Positions 20 through 43,025 of a stretch of 46,331 nt of DNA are shown here, in pieces (the stretch's first letter is position 1; the number at the start of each line of letters is the position of its first letter). This DNA is from a virus. Taxonomy: Duplodnaviria > Heunggongvirae > Uroviricota > Caudoviricetes. The stretch lies in the IMG/VR virus record IMGVR_UViG_2877948078_000002. One strand, given 5' to 3'. A program made the position numbers and the translations under genes. The notes under the pieces were generated by a model, which was not told the DNA's origin, made no database searches, and saw only the letters and a program-made list of their open reading frames with translations.

Positions 20-1315
20 TTAATTTTTCATTGCTTCGTTATGGGGCATGGTTGGGGCAAACTCGCTTAACTGTGTATTTAACAAAGCTACCTGTGCATT
101 ATTGTTTTCAGACATCCATTTTCCGTATACCTGAAATACCATTTGCGCATCTGCATGGCCCATCTGGTTTGCTATAAATGCCGGGTTAGCACCAGCTGTC
201 AGCGACCAGCAGGCATAAGTATGTCTCGACTGATATGATTTTCGATGGCGGAGTCCGGCACGTTTTATCGCTGCGTCCCACATCTGCCTTATTGAGTCAA
301 CGGTAAAATGGTCACCATAATTTTTTACTCTCGCTGACACTTCAGGTTGAAAAACAAAGGTGCATTTTTGTTTTTCTGTTCTGCCATACTCTCTGAGGTG
401 AACATCAATGATATGCTCTTTGCTCAGTCTTGTTAATGTCATCTGACTCCAGAGAGCGTCGATTGCTGGCTTAATAAGATGAATGACCCGATTGGTTCCC
501 GCCTGTGTTTTTGGTACCGTGAAACGGTCTTTTGCTAAATTTCTCCTGATCATCATTGTTCCATTTTTCAGATCTATGTCCTCCCATCCAAGTGCACACA
601 GCTCACCAGGGCGAATGCCAGTATAAACAGAAACACACCATAAATTTTTTGCTTGCTGATTTCTGCACGCATCGATAAGACGGATAAATTCCTCCCGCGA
701 AAGAGGATCCGGAATGGTTCTTGATTCCTTTAATGGCGAGATCCCCTTAAACGGATTATCTGCCAGGTAACCGTTATCAACACCAAACTGGAACACGGCG
801 TTAAGATTTGTCATGTAATTATTTACAGTTACAGCCGATCTCCCTGGTTGTGTAACAATATAGTTACTTTTGGGGATCTGGTATCCAGTCAGTAGCTCTT
901 TACGAACCTCCAGTAATTTTTCTTTATTAATCGATGAGGCAAGATTTTTTTCACCGATTATGCTCAGGATATTTTTGATGACGGCACGGTATGTGTTGAG
1001 TGATGTTTTGGCGACTTCAGTTTCTTTCAGTGCCAGAAATTTTTCAGCCAGTTCTTTTATGGTTAAATCTTGTCGGGCCTCACCAAATTTTTCCAGATTG
1101 CGTGAGGAGGGAAACTGTTTTGCATAGTCGAAAACACCAGTTTTTATTGCGTAACAAACAGAGGAGCGTAGTTCACCTGCAACGCGCCTGTTTTTTGCTG
1201 TGTCAGGAACCCCCAGATTTTCCCTGACTCTTACGCCTTTATAAACAAACCAGATACGTAATTTCCCTCCATGGTTTTCCACGCCTGTCGGATATTTCAT
1301 TTCAACTTCTCTCAT
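20..1315 (-). CDS. int: Phage integrase, tyrosine recombinase (lambda Int family)
   Basis: 431-aa ORF; C-terminal catalytic region with conserved R...HxxR...Y pattern (…RHTYACWSLTAGANPAFIANQMGHADAQMVFQVYGKWM…); located at the prophage end next to an excisionase-like gene. Confidence 0.9.
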   Translation of the reverse strand: MREVEMKYPTGVENHGGKLRIWFVYKGVRVRENLGVPDTAKNRRVAGELRSSVCYAIKTGVFDYAKQFPSSRNLEKFGEARQDLTIKELAEKFLALKETEVAKTSLNTYRAVIKNILSIIGEKNLASSINKEKLLEVRKELLTGYQIPKSNYIVTQPGRSAVTVNNYMTNLNAVFQFGVDNGYLADNPFKGISPLKESRTIPDPLSREEFIRLIDACRNQQAKNLWCVSVYTGIRPGELCALGWEDIDLKNGTMMIRRNLAKDRFTVPKTQAGTNRVIHLIKPAIDALWSQMTLTRLSKEHIIDVHLREYGRTEKQKCTFVFQPEVSARVKNYGDHFTVDSIRQMWDAAIKRAGLRHRKSYQSRHTYACWSLTAGANPAFIANQMGHADAQMVFQVYGKWMSENNNAQVALLNTQLSEFAPTMPHNEAMKN

Positions 1316-1658: not shown

Positions 1659-4130
1659 TTAAGAATCAGCCTGACTCGGGATCAGTTTTTGCCAGATAAC
1701 TGAAACGTATTTTGCCTGGTAACGGGCGTCATCAAGTGCATTATGGCGCTCACCTTCGAATGGAATAGCCGTTCTGGCATCGAAGTCTATGGCTTTCCCC
1801 AGCTCAACGATTGTGCGTACATCGCGATCGTTGTAGTAACGCCACGGGCAGGGGATCCCCTGCCGTTCGTATGAACGGCGCAAAATCGTGTTGTCGAAGT
1901 TGGCTCCATTTCCCCAAACCTGAACAAAAAATTCACCGGAGTTTTCGTCGATAAATTCCCGCAATTGTAACAGTGCATCATCTAACGGGATTTCATCGGT
2001 CATAATGGCAGATTGCGCTTCGCGTGATTGCTTAAGCCACCATTTAATGGTGTCCCGATCAATGACTCCGCCAGCAGTTTCCAGATCGATAGTCTTACTA
2101 AATTCCGGTCCCATATCTCCGGTTTGCGGATCGAAAAATATTGCACCTATTGAGATGATCGGGGCATCAGGATTTTTTCCCATGGTTTCAAGGTCGATCA
2201 TTAGATGGTCACACGTCCTGCTGGTGGATGTGATTTCGTGATGACCGTTCACCTTAATTGGGTGATCTGCCGTCTCGCCAGTTTCATTATCGCTATTGTG
2301 ATGCTGATTGCCGCCAGTGTTCTCCTTGTGTGGATGTTCAGCGCCTTCCATTTCCTCCGGATCATCTTCCTGAACTTCAACCTGATACTCTTCATCGAAT
2401 GTTTCCTGGTATGTTGCGTCGCCCATCACCGCGCCACAATCAGGGCAGTTGCCGCCGCCGGTCTGACCGCAGGCGGTGCAGGCTTTTTCCACTTCCTGGT
2501 GCGCCACTGGTTCAGGCTGTTTCGTTTCTGGCTCGTTTTGTAACGCATTTGGACTGTTTTGTTCCGCTTTTTGGTAGTTCCGTTCCGATTCATGCTGGTT
2601 CTGGTTCACAGAATCGCGGGTCTGGATCCCCTTAACCCATTTCGGATCATTCGGGTCACTAATCCCTTCAACAAATTCACCACGTGATGCAGCAAGCAAC
2701 TTATCGGCGTCAGGCTGGCTGATATTGGCTGCCTGCATAATTTTGTTTACTTCGTCAGCAGTAACTTTTATCGGCTCTGGTTGTTCTGAATCTTCAGCGG
2801 TATCTACATTTTGCGGTAAGCCCGTGTATGTGCCATTTTTTCGGGCAAAATATTCTTCTTTTGTGATTTCAGTGGCGCCAGCAGCCAGTGCCTTATCCAG
2901 ACCAGAAAGTTTGTTTGCGCGACCGTATTTTTCTCCGTCCTTATCTGCGAAGAGGAAATAGAACGGCCCCTCACGCTCTACAGATGGTTCAGCTTCCGGC
3001 GCGGTTTCATTTTTTGGGATATCAGATACCTCAGTTTCCACTGCATCAGTTTGTGTTTCTGATGACTGGAGAACATCAACAGTGCCCAGGTCTGTTTCTT
3101 CATTTTCAAACACGCCCTTTGTCGTCAGGTATTCGCAGGTATATTTGTTCAGTGCTACGGGATCTTTGTGAATGTCGATCGGACGCTCACGGACAAGGCC
3201 AAAAATAGTTTGGCGGTCGTAGCGAAGGGCATCAGGCTGTTTGCGCATTGATGCCGAGATACGCTTCCAGTCTTCGCGGTCGTTGTCGATAACTTCTTTT
3301 TTTGCCCAGCGATGGATGCTGCCGTCAATGTTTCCGGCATCCACATCACCAGGCCAGAGAGCGTAGGCCAGTTCGTCATCCAGTGTTTTCCATGTCTGCT
3401 TGTATTCGCGATGAATGGCAGCAATGACCGGGCTGATTTTTCCTGTTGAATTTTCAGTGTACTGTTGATTGGCTCTGGCGCGGGCGAGATCAACAACAGA
3501 CGTGTATTTTCCGGTTTCCTTGCGTTCACCTTCGCGACGTTTTTTCCAGATGCGCATCTCTGCCTGAATTTCGGGCCATTTAGCACCAGGAATACATTTA
3601 TGCTTAACCCACCCAATGGCGTGCAACTTAAGCTCCGGATACATGGCGTTAACTTCTGGCATTTTCATCAACGCTTCAACGATATGTCCGTCGAATGTTG
3701 CCATGTCTTCCTGCAACAATTCCTGTGCGCTAATCACCATATCAACGGTGATGTTTTCACATGTGTCGAACTTAACCATGACAGCGTTCTGTACTTCAGG
3801 GGCCAGCTTGTCAAAAGTGACGTTCATCGGATCGGATTCAGTCTCAACCGGGACAAAAGAAGCAGACTCCTCATCCCAGCGGTTTTCCTGCATATATTCA
3901 GCATCCCATGAATCGAGGGCAGGGCGGGGTATGCCAGGTTTATCCTCGCAGACAATAAATTTATAAGCGCAGTCCTGAGCAGCCGGATAATGTTCCAGGA
4001 ATTGCCAGTGAAATTTTGCTCGAGCACGGCGTTCGTCGCCAGCTTCAATGGCTGTGGCTACAGCCACAGCGCCTTCTTCCCTTGTTGCCAGTTCGTCAGG
4101 AATAGCGGCGCAAATAAAGACTTTACTCAT
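1659..4130 (-). CDS. Large early protein with C-terminal DEDDh (DnaQ-like) 3'-5' exonuclease domain; annotated in relatives as exodeoxyribonuclease VIII-like; occupies the ydfE position
   Basis: 823-aa ORF; C-terminus shows three exonuclease motifs ([30 protein letters not shown]); acidic low-complexity linker and a CxxC…CxxC element mid-protein; no Bet/RecT-like partner gene nearby. Confidence 0.75.
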
Positions 4131-4769: not shown

Positions 4770-4827
4770 AAAAACGGCGGCAGAGCAGTCACGGAGTAAA
4801 ACTGATACCGCCAAACGTCACCAGAAA
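4770..4827 (-). ncRNA. dicF: DicF small RNA (ftsZ-targeting sRNA) with intrinsic terminator
   Basis: Reverse complement of 4775..4827 reads TTTCTGGTGACGTTTGGCGGTATCAGTTTTACTCCGTGACTGCTCTGCCGCC followed by a T-run, matching the recalled 53-nt DicF; sits between ydfA-side ORFs and dicB as in Qin. Confidence 0.8.
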
Positions 4828-5086: not shown

Positions 5087-5662
5087 TTAAGGATTCATTA
5101 AGCAATGTCGCAACCACCAATAAATCCGCTTAAGAACATGAAAATTGATTACTGGTATAAAGCGCTTACAGTTGTTGGCGCTGCGTTGTTTGTCTTTAAT
5201 GGAACGTCTTTTTTTGACAGATATCCCGTTGTTCCATTGGGTTTTTTGTCCTCCGGCATCTTTTTTATTGGTTTGGGGGAGTGGATTAATCACCCTCTCA
5301 AAGTGAGATTTATTGATCCTGGAGTTTGGACTCGTGGATATAATCGTTCTTCGTGCGCACTCAGTATCATCTTCGACATACTTGGTTGTTTCCTGATTGT
5401 TACAGGAGTCGTCAAGTTCTTCTGATGTAAAACCGCAAATGGGGCACGTAACGGGAATTTTGAAAAGCGTTTCTCCGGGTTCCAGAACAAAATTTTCTGC
5501 GGTCTGATTTTGCTTCTCATATTTGTGCTCCGCGTCATTGTGAGAGCACATTCTTATTCTGAGTGCCTGTTTAAACTCACTGAAGCTGAGAGCTTCTTCG
5601 CCTTCGGCAAGGCCTTCGAAGTATTCTTCGTAAGCCTTTTCCATGATTGTGTCGAAATCCAT
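5087..5662 (-). CDS. Hypothetical early protein (191 aa from MDFDT…), acidic N-terminus with CxxC motif; possibly corresponds to ydfB/ydfC of K-12 in a longer open frame
   Basis: ATG at 5660-5662 (minus) lies 2 nt after the ydfA stop (TGAtATG) with a GGTGAG Shine-Dalgarno-like sequence; C-terminal half is K/R/N-rich and is exactly antisense to a plus-strand membrane-protein ORF, so the true extent is uncertain. Confidence 0.4.
   Translation of the reverse strand: MDFDTIMEKAYEEYFEGLAEGEEALSFSEFKQALRIRMCSHNDAEHKYEKQNQTAENFVLEPGETLFKIPVTCPICGFTSEELDDSCNNQETTKYVEDDTECARRTIISTSPNSRINKSHFERVINPLPQTNKKDAGGQKTQWNNGISVKKRRSIKDKQRSANNCKRFIPVINFHVLKRIYWWLRHCLMNP
5105..5425 (+). CDS. Putative small inner-membrane protein (SieB-like superinfection-exclusion candidate), antisense to the early-left operon
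   Basis: 106-aa ORF with AAGGA Shine-Dalgarno 10 nt upstream of the ATG; three hydrophobic segments (ALTVVGAALFVF; GFLSSGIFFIGLG; ALSIIFDILGCFLIVTGVV); opposite orientation to the surrounding genes, as sieB is in Rac (recalled). Confidence 0.3.
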   Translation: MSQPPINPLKNMKIDYWYKALTVVGAALFVFNGTSFFDRYPVVPLGFLSSGIFFIGLGEWINHPLKVRFIDPGVWTRGYNRSSCALSIIFDILGCFLIVTGVVKFF

Positions 5663-5663
5663 A

Positions 5664-5819
5664 TCACTCACCTGAGTTTCTTTCCAGCCAGCGACGGGCA
5701 CCATTTTCGGTTTTAAACGTTTTGCTTTTGGTATACGTCATCGCGGTGAACGTGCCGTCCTGGTTGGGGAACACGCCACATACCAGAGATTCGCTGTTGC
5801 CAAGATCGATAGTATCCAT
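5664..5819 (-). CDS. ydfA: YdfA-like small protein (51 aa)
   Basis: Internal ATG at 5817-5819 gives 51 aa MDTIDLGNSESLVCGVFPNQDGTFTAMTYTKSKTFKTENGARRWLERNSGE; first gene downstream of dicA on the same strand, as in Qin. Confidence 0.7.
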   Translation of the reverse strand: MDTIDLGNSESLVCGVFPNQDGTFTAMTYTKSKTFKTENGARRWLERNSGE

Positions 5820-5933
5820 GCTGACCTCATTTCCCCTTAACGCCGGGGTAGCGGAACTGTTTGCTGAGAACACCGTGCGGTGTCTTGATGGAAAGCAATT
5901 TAGAATAACCTAACATAAGAGGCAAGTGTTTTT

Positions 5934-5951
5934 TGTTAGATTAGTCTAACA
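5934..5951. promoter_or_regulatory. Palindromic operator TGTTAGA-N4-TCTAACA (putative DicA site) in the promoter region of the leftward ydfA…dicB operon
   Basis: Perfect 7-bp inverted repeat with 4-bp spacer (TGTTAGATTAGTCTAACA) between dicA stop and ydfA start; second copy of the same half-sites at 6445..6462. Confidence 0.6.
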
Positions 5952-5987
5952 AAAAGAGTGGGCGCAACTAATCACTTGAAAAGAATG

Positions 5988-6395
5988 TTATTTTATTGAT
6001 TTATTTTTACGCGCTTTAAGCATTTCTTCGAAGAGTTTGTTGAAGTTTTCTACTCTTGCGCGCATTTCAGACAGCAAGGCTTCCTGCTCGGAAGATGGAA
6101 GAGCATCGAATAATTCGATCAATTCTTTGTGGTTGGGAGTTAGCTCTGTTTCCACATGAAGTTCTTGTGCCGGCACTGGTGCCTTGTCTTCGTCACCAAA
6201 CATTAGCCATGTAGGTGAGCACTTCAGAGCATCCGCTAAAGCAAACAATCGTTTTCCGACTGGCTGGGTTTCGTCTCTTTCCCATTGTGAAATTGTGACG
6301 TGAGCAACCCCAGCGAGGCGCGCAGCTTCTCGTTGTGTTAAGCGTAATTCTTTTCGTCGCGCCAGAACTCGCTGGCCTAGGGTTCTTGTATCCAT
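5988..6395 (-). CDS. dicA: Prophage repressor DicA (XRE-family HTH, C2/cI-like)
   Basis: 135-aa product MDTRTLGQRVLARRKELRLTQREAARLAGVAHVTISQWERDETQP… with HTH motif; closely resembles DicA as recalled; divergent from a cro-like gene. Confidence 0.9.
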   Translation of the reverse strand: MDTRTLGQRVLARRKELRLTQREAARLAGVAHVTISQWERDETQPVGKRLFALADALKCSPTWLMFGDEDKAPVPAQELHVETELTPNHKELIELFDALPSSEQEALLSEMRARVENFNKLFEEMLKARKNKSIK

Positions 6396-6417
6396 AGTTA
6401 GGTAATTCTAATTTTTC

Positions 6418-6445
6418 TTGACTTAGGTATCCCGCGCACAATAAT
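6418..6445 (+). promoter_or_regulatory. Candidate sigma70 promoter for dicC (-35 TTGACT, about 16-17 nt spacer, -10 CATAAT/ATAATG) overlapping the operator
   Basis: TTGACT at 6418..6423, -10-like hexamer at 6440..6446, operator palindrome begins at 6445. Confidence 0.45.
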
Positions 6446-6462
6446 GTTAGAAAAGTCTAACA
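6445..6462. promoter_or_regulatory. Palindromic operator TGTTAGA-N4-TCTAACA in the dicA/dicC divergent intergenic region
   Basis: TGTTAGAAAAGTCTAACA; identical half-sites to the 5934..5951 copy; overlaps the -10/+1 of the dicC promoter candidate. Confidence 0.6.
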
Positions 6463-6475
6463 ATAGGAGGCTTTG

Positions 6476-6703
6476 ATGCTTAAAGCTGACGCAATTACTT
6501 TTTTTGGCAGCAAAACAAAGCTTGCCAATGCCGCAGGAGTGAGACTGGCAAGTGTTGCTGCTTGGGGGATACTGGTTCCTGAAGGTCGCGCGATGCGTCT
6601 ACAGGAGGCATCTGGCGGGGAGCTTCAGTATGATCCCAAAGTTTATGACGAATATCGTAAGACGAAGCGGGCGGGGCGATTGAACAATGAAAATCACTCC
6701 TGA
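6476..6703 (+). CDS. dicC: Cro-like regulator DicC
   Basis: About 75-aa product MLKADAITFFGSKTKLANAAGVRLASVAAWG…EGRAMRLQEASGGELQYDPKVYDEY…; AGGAGG Shine-Dalgarno 5 nt upstream of the ATG; divergent from dicA. Confidence 0.85.
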   Translation: MLKADAITFFGSKTKLANAAGVRLASVAAWGILVPEGRAMRLQEASGGELQYDPKVYDEYRKTKRAGRLNNENHS

Positions 6704-7208
6704 ACAGGCTCGTGAGGCTCTGGATGCCTGGATATGTCGACCAGGAATGACACAGGAGCAGGCGACGATATTAATCACTGAAGCATTCTGGGCTTTGAAA
6801 GAGCGCCCGAACATCGATGTTCAGCGTGTCACAGATGAAGGTGGCGCGGTTGATCAGCGAGCGCTTGGCGTTAATCGAGTGAAGATATTCGAACGCTGGA
6901 AGGCTATCGACACTAGGGATAAGCGTGAAAAGTTCACGGCGCTAGTGCCTGCAATTATGGAGGCTATCCGGATTAATGATTTCAGGTTGTATCGTGAAAT
7001 TAGTGACGGAAAAAGCATCACGTACATGATCGCCGGGTTAAACAAAGAATATGGCGATGTGGTGGAGTCCGGACTGCTTTTTGCTGATCCTGCCGTAGTG
7101 GATCGTGAAACTGACGAACTTATAGAAAAAGCAATTGCTTTCAAACTTGCGTATCGACTGCAATACCAACAAAAAGCTGGATGGAATTATGAGCCTTCTT
7201 TTTGCTGA
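6687..7208 (+). CDS. Hypothetical early protein immediately downstream of the cro-like gene (position of cII/YdaT-like regulators)
   Basis: 173-aa ORF overlapping the dicC end and the replication gene start; no motif I can assign with confidence. Confidence 0.55.
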   Translation: MKITPEQAREALDAWICRPGMTQEQATILITEAFWALKERPNIDVQRVTDEGGAVDQRALGVNRVKIFERWKAIDTRDKREKFTALVPAIMEAIRINDFRLYREISDGKSITYMIAGLNKEYGDVVESGLLFADPAVVDRETDELIEKAIAFKLAYRLQYQQKAGWNYEPSFC

Positions 7209-8617: not shown

Positions 8618-8866
8618 CGAGATTAAAGTGCATTAGTTAAGATGTAAATTGACATTTTCATGGCATAGGGTAGAGGTAGCGTGGTTGTCTGCTTTGTGCC
8701 ATGAACTGATGTCGCTTGTGTGCGTGGCAATTAGTGTATAACGGATATCATCAGACTCCAGCAGTAGCATTGCTTGAGCATACTAACATATGAAATCTTT
8801 AGTTAACGTAAGATAAATTAGATTTAGTATTTTTTTGAGTATGAGCTCATAAATAATCAAAAAAAC

Positions 8867-10439: not shown

Positions 10440-10694
10440 TAAGAAATCTTGCTATTGTTCTTATGGATCGTCTTTCTGACTGATTTCATATTGGCGAGGT
10501 AAAGGTAGTTAAGTAGAATGGCTGCGGGTGCTTGAGGCTATCTGCCTCGGGCATGAACACCAAAGGCAGATAGAGAAAAGCCCCAGTTAACATTACGCGT
10601 CCTGCAAGACGCTTAACATTAATCTGAGGCCAATTTCATGCTAGACACATGTAGGTTAGCCTCTTACGTGCCGAAAGGCAAGGAGAAGCAGTCT
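10440..10694. promoter_or_regulatory. hok mRNA leader / putative sok antisense RNA region with stable stem-loops
   Basis: Perfect 10-bp inverted repeat CTATCTGCCT…AGGCAGATAG (10538-10547 / 10564-10573), a second hairpin GCGTC…GACGC and direct repeats TTAACATTA around 10586..10625; in-frame upstream extension of hok (mok-like reading frame). Confidence 0.45.
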
Positions 10695-10850
10695 ATGAAG
10701 CAGCAAAAGGCGATGTTAATCGCCCTGATCGTCATCTGTTTAACCGTCATAGTGACGGCACTGGTAACGAGGAAAGACCTCTGCGAGGTACGAATCCGAA
10801 CCGGCCAGACGGAGGTCGCTGTCTTCACAGCTTACGAACCTGAGGAGTAA
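10695..10850 (+). CDS. hokD: Hok-family type I toxin (HokD/RelF-like, 51 aa)
   Basis: MKQQKAMLIALIVICLTVIVTALVTRKDLCEVRIRTGQTEVAVFTAYEPEE matches HokD/RelF as recalled; single transmembrane helix; AGGAG Shine-Dalgarno 9 nt upstream. Confidence 0.85.
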   Translation: MKQQKAMLIALIVICLTVIVTALVTRKDLCEVRIRTGQTEVAVFTAYEPEE

Positions 10851-11066: not shown

Positions 11067-11318
11067 ATGATGAACATCGAAGAACTGCGTAAAATTTTTT
11101 GTGAAGATGGCCTCTATGCTGTGTGCGTTGAAAATGGAAATCTTGTTAGTCATTACCGCATTATGTGTTTGCAAAAGAATGGGGCTGCGTTAATTAATTT
11201 TGTGGATGGTCGAGTGACAGACAGATTTATCTTGCGCGAAGGTGAGTTTGTCACTTCATTACAGGCACTGAAAGAGATCGGAATAAAAGCAGGCTTTTCA
11301 GCTTTTGCAGAAGAATAA
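11067..11318 (+). CDS. Hypothetical small protein (83 aa); same length and position as K-12 Rem
   Basis: 83-aa ORF between hok and ydfU; assignment to rem is by position and length only. Confidence 0.5.
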   Translation: MMNIEELRKIFCEDGLYAVCVENGNLVSHYRIMCLQKNGAALINFVDGRVTDRFILREGEFVTSLQALKEIGIKAGFSAFAEE

Positions 11319-14114: not shown

Positions 14115-14414
14115 AAAAATTCCTTAATACTGATAACTTGGCGCACTATACACACGTTCCTGAAGAAAGCTATAGTTTTTTGATGGGGTTGAAGATGGCT
14201 GGATGTCTAAAATAAACATTGCTTCATATGTTCAACTATGCGTTAATGATTGCGTCGGTTTGAAGAACAGACGATATACGAAGTAGTTTACTAAAGCAGT
14301 TCTCATTTCAGGTGTTATTCACTTATTCCTTCTTTGAGTCTCTCCAATTAAGTACGAAGTCGTTTCTGTTATGCAAACCATTTATGCCGAAAGGCTCAAG
14401 TTAAGGAATGTAGA

Positions 14415-14630
14415 ATGTCAAATAAAATGACTGGTTTAGTAAAATGGTTTAACGCTGATAAAGGTTTCGGCTTTATTTCTCCTGTTGATGGTAGTAAAGA
14501 TGTGTTTGTGCATTTTTCTGCGATTCAGAATGATAATTATCGAACCTTATTTGAAGGTCAAAAGGTTACCTTCTCTATAGAGAGTGGTGCTAAAGGTCCT
14601 GCAGCAGCAAATGTCATCATTACTGATTAA
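14415..14630 (+). CDS. cspB: Cold-shock protein CspB
   Basis: 71-aa product [71 protein letters not shown] with RNP1/RNP2 motifs; long 5' leader upstream. Confidence 0.9.
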
Positions 14631-14911
14631 AATTCATCGCTCGTCTGTATACGATAACGAAGAAGGCTGATGCCTGAGTAGAGATACGGACAGAGTAGTG
14701 AATATTGGATTTCTTTAATAAAAATTAAGGAGGTCCAATACATGAAACAATGGCCAGCATATTTGGCAAAATCTTAATCAGGAAAAGTATGCTAACCATT
14801 GTGGTGAAGTGCAGGTTTGCTGCATGAATAGTTTTACAGCAGAAGCTAACTGCTGGCATGGCAAAACAAAGTGCGTAAGTGGATGACTCCCACAAAAAGC
14901 ACCACAATCTC

Positions 14912-16939: not shown

Positions 16940-17302
16940 GGTAATATTAAATCGGAACATTTACATCGCGGAATGTAAAATTTAAATAAAAAGGACTCTT
17001 CCATGAGCCAAAATTCCTGAAATCTTAAGGGTAAGATAAAAGGTCTTAATCAGAATGACACGTTATTATTAATAAATAAAGCTATTCTTTCATTGCTGTG
17101 TTTTTCTTTACAAAAGTAATCCTTGCTATGGGTGGTTAATCATGCGTTAATGGTGTTCTGGTTTGTTACAAATTTATCTGAAGCAGTCATTGTTATAATT
17201 TTATTATTTGTACCTCTTGAGATTTCCTTGTTGGTTTTTCTCTCTGATATTTTTTTTCGGACCATTCTGCCCAAGGGCTAATTTCTTCAAAAGGTAATAA
17301 TT

Positions 17303-17515
17303 ATGTCTAACAAAATGACTGGTTTAGTGAAATGGTTTAACCCTGAAAAAGGTTTTGGTTTCATCACGCCGAAAGATGGCAGCAAAGATGTGTTTGTCCA
17401 TTTCTCAGCAATTCAGAGCAACGATTTCAAAACATTAACTGAGAATCAGGAAGTTGAATTTGGTATTGAGAACGGACCTAAAGGTCCTGCCGCTGTTCAT
17501 GTAGTGGCGCTTTGA
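17303..17515 (+). CDS. cspI: Cold-shock protein CspI
   Basis: 70-aa product [70 protein letters not shown]; long AT-rich 5' leader. Confidence 0.9.
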
Positions 17516-17719
17516 GGTAGACAATATTACAAACCATATTCACTTTAGATGCCCGTGTTGTCATGGTTCCCAGTATAGAACATCATCTTTTGATGTTTCT
17601 GACATGAATCCTTTCGGGGCAAAATGTATCTTTTGTAAATCAATGATGATTACATTTGATAATATTTCACAATACTTAAATGCCAGCCGTCTGTCGTTGG
17701 ATTTAAAAAAGTGAAAATG

Positions 17720-42450: not shown

Positions 42451-43025
42451 TGGCATTCAGAATGAGTGAACAACCACGGACCATAAAAATTTATAATCTG
42501 CTGGCCGGAACTAATGAATTTATTGGTGAAGGTGATGCATATATTCCGCCTCATACAGGTCTGCCAGCAAACAGTACCGATATTGCACCGCCAGATATTC
42601 CGGCTGGCTTCGTGGCTGTTTTCAACAGTGATGAGTCATCGTGGCATCTCGTTGAAGATCATCGGGGTAAAACGGTTTATGACGTGGCTTCCGGCGACGC
42701 GTTATTTATTTCTGAACTCGGTCCGTTACCGGAAAATGTTACCTGGTTATCGCCGGAAGGGGAGTTTCAGAAGTGGAACGGCACAGCCTGGGTGAAGGAT
42801 ACGGAAGCAGAAAAACTGTTCCGGATCCGGGAGGCGGAAGAAACAAAAAACAACCTGATGCAGGTAGCCAGTGAGCATATTGCGCCGCTTCAGGATGCTG
42901 CAGATCTGGAAATTGCAACGGAGGAAGAAATCTCGTTGCTGGAAGCATGGAAAAAGTATCGGGTATTGCTGAACCGTGTTGATACGTCAACTGCACAGGA
43001 TATTGAATGGCCAGCACTGCCGTAG
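42450..43025 (+). CDS. tfa: Tail fibre assembly protein (Tfa)
   Basis: 191-aa ORF immediately after stf (TAATG overlap); size and position of lambdoid Tfa. Confidence 0.85.

Follow-up and report, generated by a model that had tools for sequence, protein, structure and literature searches.

The closest described system is the immunity region of the Qin prophage of Escherichia coli K-12. There, DicA binds the operator Oc, TTGTTAGTCATAACTAACAA, in vivo (Yun et al. 2012; PMC3441716). Oc overlaps the -10 element of the dicC promoter (dicCp), and one A-to-C substitution in an arm abolishes binding (PMC3441716). When bound there, DicA acts as a repressor of dicC and as an activator of dicA; two further sites predicted from sequence, Oa and Om, showed no DicA binding in vivo (PMC3441716). 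The start site of dicCp was mapped by 5' RACE (PMC3441716), and Oc is annotated at -8 to +12 of this promoter. The second promoter of the switch, dicBp, is derepressed 22-fold upon deletion of dicA and is induced 165-fold by Rem (Ragunathan et al. 2023; PMC10448788). Operator-like sequences on both sides of dicA, towards dicC as well as towards dicBp, are attributed to Bejar et al. (1988) in the restatement given in PMC10448788. A 2024 preprint places the strongest ChIP-seq signal of K-12 DicC on the flanks of dicA and reports the palindromic motif TT(A/C/T)G..C(G/A/T)AA (PMC11430063). In the Reg-Seq paper, the DicA site for dicB is of low evidence, with its binding location listed as unknown. 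On the structural side, a further reference is the C2 repressor of phage P22. Its operator has 18 bp (ATTTAAGATATCTTAAAT); V33 packs on TTAA, and the central 4 bp are uncontacted.

The DNA analysed here, a stretch of 46,331 bases (called "the window" below), is an E. coli Qin-like lambdoid prophage with dicA, dicC, ydfA, DicF, dicB and rem (Table 1). Some part of the region 5600..6750 is matched by 3,876 of 5,426 complete E. coli genomes, and at least 80% of the region is matched in 563. In the best-matching genome, the locus adjoins rspB and lies behind an integrase; replication-type, lysis, head and tail genes follow. This setting, beside rspB and an integrase and with this phage gene content, marks the locus as that of a Qin-like lambdoid prophage which occupies the Qin site. 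An earlier note on this DNA, made from the letters alone, had described a divergent dicA/dicC pair and a ydfA-dicB operon downstream of dicA, and domain matches, identities to the K-12 proteins and the DicF RNA all agree with this. The pair of a ~135-aa HTH repressor and a divergently encoded P22-Cro-like protein of ~76 aa, which belongs to the Qin-type module, is present. The operon downstream of dicA is on the minus strand and consists of ydfA, DicF, dicB and ydfD (Pfam, Rfam, translation and RefSeq annotation).

Table 1. Features of the immunity region and associated genes (window coordinates; promoters and operators are predicted).
Feature	Position	Strand	Basis and remarks
dicB, cell-division inhibitor, 62 aa	4412..4600	-	translation; RefSeq annotation of a near-identical genome
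DicF sRNA	4775..4826	-	Rfam RF00039, 72.5 bits (gathering score 48)
ydfA (DUF1391), first gene of the repressed operon	5664..5819	-	Pfam E 9e-28; RefSeq annotation of a near-identical genome
dicBp (promoter of ydfA-dicF-dicB)	5897..5925	-	-35 TTGCCT at 5925..5920, 17-nt spacer, -10 TAAATT at 5902..5897; read from the minus-strand sequence
proximal dicBp operator, minus strand TGTTAGGTTATTCTAAAT	5898..5915		fills the -35/-10 spacer; 2 arm mismatches
distal dicBp operator, perfect palindrome TGTTAGATTAGTCTAACA	5934..5951		36 bp past the dicA stop codon, 8 bp upstream of the -35 element
dicA-like repressor, 135 aa	5988..6395	-	Pfam HTH_3 E 1.5e-14; 57% identical to K-12 DicA
Oa-type weak operator AGTTAGGTAATTCTAATT	6396..6413		abuts the dicA start codon; 3 arm mismatches
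dicC promoter	6418..6445	+	-35 TTGACT at 6418-6423, 16-nt spacer, -10 AATAAT at 6440-6445; promoter scan 10/12
Oc-type operator, perfect 18-bp palindrome TGTTAGAAAAGTCTAACA	6445..6462		position and half-sites of K-12 Oc
dicC, Cro-like regulator, 75 aa	6476..6703	+	Pfam P22_Cro E 1.1e-12; 86% identical to K-12 DicC
rem homologue, 83-aa ORF	11067..11318	+	annotated as Rem in a near-identical genome; anti-repressor role by analogy with K-12

The resemblance to K-12 Qin extends over the gene order (dicC and dicA divergent, then ydfA, DicF, dicB and ydfD, with rem to the right), the chromosomal site by rspB, the length and architecture of the repressor, the half-sites TGTTAG/CTAACA with a 6-bp centre, an Oc that lies over the dicC -10 and +1, and a pair of dicBp sites spaced by 35-36 bp. 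There are also differences. DicA is only 57% identical, the operator centres differ, and the distal dicBp site is perfect in the window but has 2 arm mismatches in K-12. Unlike the cryptic K-12 Qin prophage, the window prophage retains head, tail and lysis genes. The window thus carries a different DicA allele of a known family, for which the switch logic and the half-site have already been published. The DicA/DicC switch, Oc and the control of dicBp by DicA are textbook-level for E. coli K-12, and the locus offers little as a discovery. The gain is modest: comparison places one dicBp operator within the -35/-10 spacer and the other directly ahead of -35.

The analysis started from a palindrome, TGTTAGA-N4-TCTAACA, which the earlier note had reported as occurring twice and which it had proposed as the operator of a DicA/DicC immunity switch. 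An exact pattern search over the 46,331 bases of the window returns these two copies only (TGTTAGATTAGTCTAACA at 5934..5951 and TGTTAGAAAAGTCTAACA at 6445..6462). No exact match occurs in 100 dinucleotide-preserving shuffles of the window (expected number 0.00), so that this part of the proposal holds. A repeat finder, run independently, recovers the same palindrome family (members 36 and 511 bp apart) and extends the arms of the 5934 copy to 11 bp (5930..5955). A motif search of the window for further copies, which had also been suggested, yields no third exact copy and two weaker ones that the earlier note did not list, at 5898..5915 (2 of 12 arm positions mismatched) and at 6396..6413 (3 of 12). 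At up to 2 mismatches, three imperfect matches are found in the window, compared to 1.44 expected by chance. One of them is the 5898 copy. The others, at 8771 and 18768, were taken as chance; their context is without functional support. Our reading is that both perfect palindromes are operators of a lambdoid immunity switch of the DicA/DicC type (Qin-type, P22-like); based on sequence comparison, we consider this highly probable (about 0.85).

On the dicC side, the predicted promoter aligns with K-12 dicCp. The 6445 palindrome begins at the last base of the -10 element AATAAT and also overlaps the predicted +1. In the alignment, it has the half-sites of K-12 Oc (TTGTTAG-N6-CTAACAA) and the same place relative to the -35 element TTGACT and the -10 element. 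By position and sequence, it is the Oc counterpart of K-12, and its claimed overlap with the dicC promoter extends over -10 and +1, as is the case for K-12 Oc. Recognisable sites number two on each side of dicA, 49 bp apart on the dicC side and 36 bp apart on the dicB side; at the middle site of dicCp, only one half matches.

The weak site on the dicC side covers a candidate -10 element for dicA (TAGAAT, on the dicA strand), which ends 10 nt before the ATG. No Shine-Dalgarno sequence is found ahead of the dicA ATG. The dicA mRNA may be nearly leaderless, in analogy to that of lambda cI when transcribed from PRM. Because Oa and Om of K-12 are not bound by DicA in vivo, 6396..6413 may not be a DicA site. 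It is a candidate site that may serve DicC or may be a high-occupancy site.

On the other side of dicA, the minus strand between the dicA stop codon and ydfA reads ...TTTTTGTTAGACTAATCTAACAAAAAACAC-TTGCCT-CTTATGTTAGGTTATTC-TAAATT-GCTTTCCATCAAG... The pattern TTGnnn-17-TAAnnT-(7-9)-CATCAA is kept in all immunity types examined, while the spacer sequence changes. Due to this conservation, the two hexamers are taken as the -35 and -10 elements of dicBp. They score 8/12, which is under the threshold of the promoter scan, and the predicted start, near 5890, rests on conservation. An alternative promoter over the distal palindrome (TTGCGC-18-TAATCT) was rejected, being weak and without conservation in K-12. 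As a side observation, the coordinate of the K-12 RNase III cleavage (813/814) would put +1 within about 5 nt of the predicted dicBp start, provided that its numbering begins at the transcript 5' end.

The right half of the proximal operator merges with the dicBp -10 element. This accounts for the imperfection of the site: its right half must also spell TAAATT. The earlier note had placed the 5934 palindrome in the promoter region of the ydfA-dicB operon. It does lie beside this promoter, but upstream of -35, so that the core is not covered. Two aspects of this geometry count against our reading. A repressor on the distal palindrome, whose centre is at about -52 from the predicted dicBp start, would not be placed so as to occlude RNA polymerase. 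The two dicBp sites are 35-36 bp apart from centre to centre, corresponding to ~3.4 helical turns, and side-by-side cooperativity is thus not obviously favoured.

Conservation was analyzed at two levels. A protein-based scan, with one genome per species, resulted in 57 DicA-family loci. Twelve of these have the helix (V/I)(A/S)HV(T/S)(I/V)SQWE together with TGTTAG-type operators; with the window, they make up a set of 13 loci from different enterobacterial species. In these 13 loci, all four sites occur at fixed offsets (-67/-68 and -18 from the dicA ATG, +35..41 and +70..77 after the dicA stop codon). The spacing between the distal and the proximal dicBp site is 34-36 bp throughout; the arms are kept and the centres vary.

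For close relatives, a palindrome-based scan of phage contigs had been made, in which ~80 of 120 contigs with the exact palindrome have no DicA homologue nearby. Such a scan is biased since it selects for the motif, and it was replaced by protein-ascertained loci. These are 80 phage contigs, gathered blind to the DNA motif via a DicA that is at least 99% identical. The 6-bp arms are perfect in 79 of the 80 contigs at Oc, and the same number (79/80) applies to the distal dicBp site. At Oc, the central 6 bp occur in 6 variants, at the distal site in 11, and the flanking intergenic DNA is polymorphic. The weak site 6396..6413 is identical in all 80 contigs, and the proximal dicBp site is almost invariant. 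This pattern is a clean phylogenetic footprint. The absence of the palindromes from prophages with a near-identical dicA had been named as a finding that would speak against the proposal; what is found is that the arms are perfect in all but one contig at either strong site.

The conserved operator unit is 6-N6-6 and not 7-N4-7. The latter corresponds to the P22 frame, yet conservation fixes only 6+6 positions. Of the concrete operator consensus that had been put forward for this immunity type, the half-sites shared by both promoters stand; the 7-N4-7 unit does not. Nor is the consensus new, since the half-site TGTTAG is that of K-12 Oc.

Natural variation in the repressor provides a further line of evidence. 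Among E. coli strains, mosaics exist that agree in the ydfA leader and in the C-terminus of DicC but carry another dicA allele, and in these the half-sites differ at all sites together. The allele with the helix VSGSSISLWE comes with ATTGAG-N4-CTCAAT, CTTGAG..CTCAT and AATGAG..CTAAAT, and another dicA allele with CCTTAG..CTAAGG, GCTTAG.. and TCTTAG..CTAAAT. The sequence of the proximal dicBp site co-varies with the immunity type in these mosaics. Further classes in other species have TGTTGAG, ATAAC/GTTAT, CTTAAC or, in a distant family member (L038), the P22-like ATTAAAG-N4-CTTAAAT. A permutation test was made with seven immunity classes, each represented by one Oc that was chosen from upstream regions only and by eye, which limits the test; automatic picking (the most self-complementary 18-mer) failed for several divergent classes. 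When each Oc is paired with the downstream region of its own class, 40 mismatches result, compared to a permutation mean of 70, and no other of the 5040 permutations does as well. At both promoters, the half-sites thus change jointly with the recognition helix of the repressor. What this analysis shows is that the sites exist, where they lie, that they are conserved and that they co-vary with the repressor. That a single repressor controls both promoters, as the earlier note had proposed, has been published for K-12 (PMC10448788), and the conserved and co-varying half-sites point to the same for the window allele.

The variation also delimits the exchanged unit. In DicC, the N-terminal ~32 residues vary by immunity type and the C-terminal part is invariant; the exchanged immunity cassette spans from dicC codon ~33 to the dicBp -10 element. 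Being swapped as units, DicA-like cassettes represent natural operator/repressor pairs for specificity tests. The window and K-12 types differ in the operator centre, which is YYATRR in 12 of 12 strong sites of the K-12 type and which begins with a purine and is otherwise free in the window type. At position 7, window-type sites have a purine and K-12-type sites a pyrimidine. Position 7 and the centre may be a specificity difference between the two types of alleles.

The N-terminal 70 residues of DicA match the DNA-binding domain of P22 C2 (phmmer E 1.3e-18 to 1adr). In an AF2 model of DicA (pLDDT 85), the N-terminal domain superimposes on 3jxb/2r1j at 0.6-0.8 A, with 49-50% identity and a Foldseek TM of 0.97. 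Two residues that have been discussed in connection with recognition of the P22 operator, V33 and Q37, do not vary within the DicA family. In the 18-bp P22 frame, TTAG of the DicA sites is in register with the V33-contacted TTAA of P22. Thus, the two systems have V33/Q37 in common, as well as an 18-bp operator with two-fold symmetry, in which the T-T-A cores coincide in register and the central bases are not read individually. They differ in the half-sites (ATTTAAG-N4-CTTAAAT in P22 operators, TGTTAG-N6-CTAACA in the window), so that the window sites deviate from the P22 consensus. They also differ in the C-terminal part. P22 C2 has a self-cleaving, RecA-dependent domain there, whereas DicA has a helical C-terminus of ~50 residues and, by analogy, would be released by an anti-repressor. 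The 135-aa DicA has no Pfam match to Peptidase_S24 or another peptidase domain; residues 87-134 form two helices in the AF2 model. According to the literature, DicA is without an Ala-Gly cleavage site (PMC10448788).

From homology and from the positions of the sites, we infer how the switch may operate; this applies to binding by the DicA allele of the window, to any cooperative action of the sites and to what the distal and the ATG-proximal site do. A DicA dimer with its P22 C2-like HTH would read TGTTAG/CTAACA, separated by 6 weakly constrained bp. Bound to Oc, it would cover -10 and +1 of dicCp and would block dicC as well as the early genes transcribed rightward; if K-12 is a guide, it would also stimulate dicA. 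At dicBp, DicA on the proximal site would occlude RNA polymerase, and the perfect distal site could serve as a high-affinity anchor from which the proximal one is loaded more readily. In this way, the promoter that drives ydfA-DicF-dicB-ydfD would be silenced via its two sites. The weak site 6396..6413, which lies over the likely -10 element and start of dicA, probably serves for shut-off of dicA by DicC or by excess DicA, comparable to OR3. The Cro-like DicC most probably shares the DicA sites. Release of DicA would fall to Rem, whose gene lies 5 kb to the right.

The alternative that survives best concerns the distal palindrome only. Rather than being a promoter operator, it may keep dicA transcripts out of the toxic ydfA-dicB operon, either as an RNA element or as a roadblock formed by bound protein. 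This would fit with its location upstream of -35, off the core promoter. It would also fit with the window and K-12 types, which lack an intrinsic terminator between the dicA stop codon and the palindrome; in several other members of the family, a GC-rich hairpin and a T-run are clearly present after dicA. RNA of the distal palindrome would fold as an 11-bp hairpin (z = -2.4), but with an AT-rich stem and an A-run after it. An intrinsic terminator as the main role was rejected because of this AT-rich composition and the absence of a U-tract on either strand. Among the 80 contigs, there are no compensatory arm changes; the arms are simply invariant. A hairpin leaves unexplained that the arms are identical to those of Oc and that they co-vary with the recognition helix. 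We therefore consider it improbable that this function replaces that of an operator. The roadblock version is, however, compatible with the operator reading as an added role.

Even less probable is that the palindromes are primarily DicC sites and that DicA acts elsewhere, or only indirectly at the dicB promoter. The ChIP-seq signal of K-12 DicC is indeed strongest on either side of dicA, with a motif of the form TTNG..CNAA (PMC11430063). In addition, the location of DicA at dicBp was never mapped in K-12, and the N-terminal HTH part of DicC likewise changes with the immunity class. However, it is DicA that occupies Oc in K-12 in vivo, with binding lost upon a single arm mutation (PMC3441716), and DicA-dependent repression of dicBp is seen in a K-12 background devoid of dicC (PMC10448788). 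One natural allele (locus L063) separates the two proteins. Its half-sites are altered, and the N-terminus of its DicC is still 93% identical to that of the window, but its DicA differs in the N-terminal arm and in helix 2. The operator change thus tracks DicA in this case. In lambdoid phages, repressor and Cro share operators as a rule. Binding by DicC therefore complements the DicA model and is not an alternative to it.

That the two copies reflect chance or a historical duplication without function is barely conceivable: short AT-rich palindromes are generally frequent, and many of the phage contigs in the palindrome-based scan lack a nearby DicA homologue, but the absence of matches in shuffled sequence, the fixed offsets, the invariant arms amid variable centres and flanks, and the co-varying half-sites contradict it.

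Returning to the operator reading, some extensions can be considered which we regard, taken together, as rather unlikely. DicA on the distal operator could act as a roadblock that keeps the dicA transcript from entering the lethal dicBF operon. In addition, the distal operator and Oc, which are 511 bp apart, may be bridged by the repressor, resulting in a loop around dicA, as a miniature analogue of OL-OR looping in lambda. Finally, the K-12 and window repressors share the contacted half-sites, and position 7/12 together with the non-contacted centre may be all that tells them apart. Indirect readout would then determine heteroimmunity between co-resident Qin-like prophages.

The comparison can be extended to more distant switches. 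With lambda, the locus shares divergent repressor and cro promoters, a leftward PL-like promoter on the far side of the repressor gene, one repressor at both and the layout of a bistable switch. It differs in that three adjacent 17-bp sites are not recognisable. Instead, the window has one strong site with a weak site 49 bp away, and two sites at dicBp. A second likeness is to SinR/SinI and to phi106 (arbitrium; AimX), which also combine an HTH domain with a helical C-terminus; matches are to 1b0n, 9sf2 and 9iaq at E ~1e-3. The full-length rmsd is 9-11 A, so that the likeness of the C-terminus is architectural only. A small releasing protein is a further point in common with SinR and phi106 and their small anti-repressors: in K-12, repression is lifted by the small protein Rem (PMC10448788).

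The operators of the loci carrying a dicA of the type found in the E. coli K-12 Qin prophage (L011, L012, L014 and L015) were compared with those of the window and of the loci L003-L007. The contacted half-sites are common to the repressors of both types, and the operator centres differ. The centre reads YYATRR in all 12 strong sites of the K-12-type operators, whereas in the window-type operators the first base is a purine and the rest is variable. It is possible that the operator centre is the determinant of heteroimmunity between K-12-type and window-type repressors.

The exchangeable immunity cassette of the window (ca. 5897..6575) has sharp mosaic edges when compared with L060-L063 and L001. 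One edge is located around codon 33 of dicC, the other at the -10 box of dicBp, the promoter of the ydfA-dicF-dicB operon. Beyond these edges, the ydfA leader and the C-terminus of DicC are near-identical across immunity types.

No Shine-Dalgarno sequence precedes dicA in the window (start at 6395), and the weak operator (6396..6413) contains a TAGAAT hexamer whose end is 10 nt away from the ATG on its upstream side. Together, these features suggest that the dicA mRNA is almost leaderless, which would resemble the lambda cI mRNA transcribed from PRM. The arrangement of TAGAAT hexamer, weak operator and dicA start is kept in all 80 related contigs.

In the closest genome, that of E. coli TUM14759 (L002/L064; 99.7% identity), the equivalent of dicA (window 5988..6395) is annotated as frameshifted, and despite this annotation dicB and DicF are intact. 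Either a sequencing error accounts for the frameshift, or another DicA-type prophage provides repression in trans.

An AT-rich phage contig (L074, IMGVR_UViG_3300012020_000462) carries, at 2120..2230, at least four tandem copies of ATGTTAGA-N4-(T/A)CTAACAA with a period of ca. 23 bp. The palindrome is identical to that of the window, its surroundings being unrelated, and a tblastn search found no DicA homologue in this contig. These repeats may be operators or iterons that belong to another regulator.

Further genes and RNAs of the prophage are listed in the table. The body of the YdfB-fusion ORF holds a CxxC motif (PICGF); this ORF matches PHROG 35040 (unknown function) with an E-value of 3e-140, and a Pfam search gave no match. 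The RefSeq annotation of a near-identical genome shows no more than a truncated ydfB pseudogene at the equivalent position. The P-loop ATPase gene, which is flanked by a DUF977 gene and the hok/sok module and is not present in K-12 Qin, may have an accessory or defence function.

Additional genes and RNAs of the prophage (window coordinates)
Feature	Position	Strand	Remarks
YdfB-fusion ORF, 191 aa	5087..5662	-	residues 1-34 are YdfB, followed by a longer body
P-loop ATPase, 495 aa	8935..10422	+	Sll1717 family in RefSeq; PHROG of unknown function
sok RNA	10526..10697		part of hok/sok module
cspA-type thermoregulator leader	14254..14646	+	upstream of cspB homologue
cspA-type thermoregulator leader	17157..17542	+	upstream of cspI homologue
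IS009 RNA-family match	42793..42991	+	near pinQ, within the prophage
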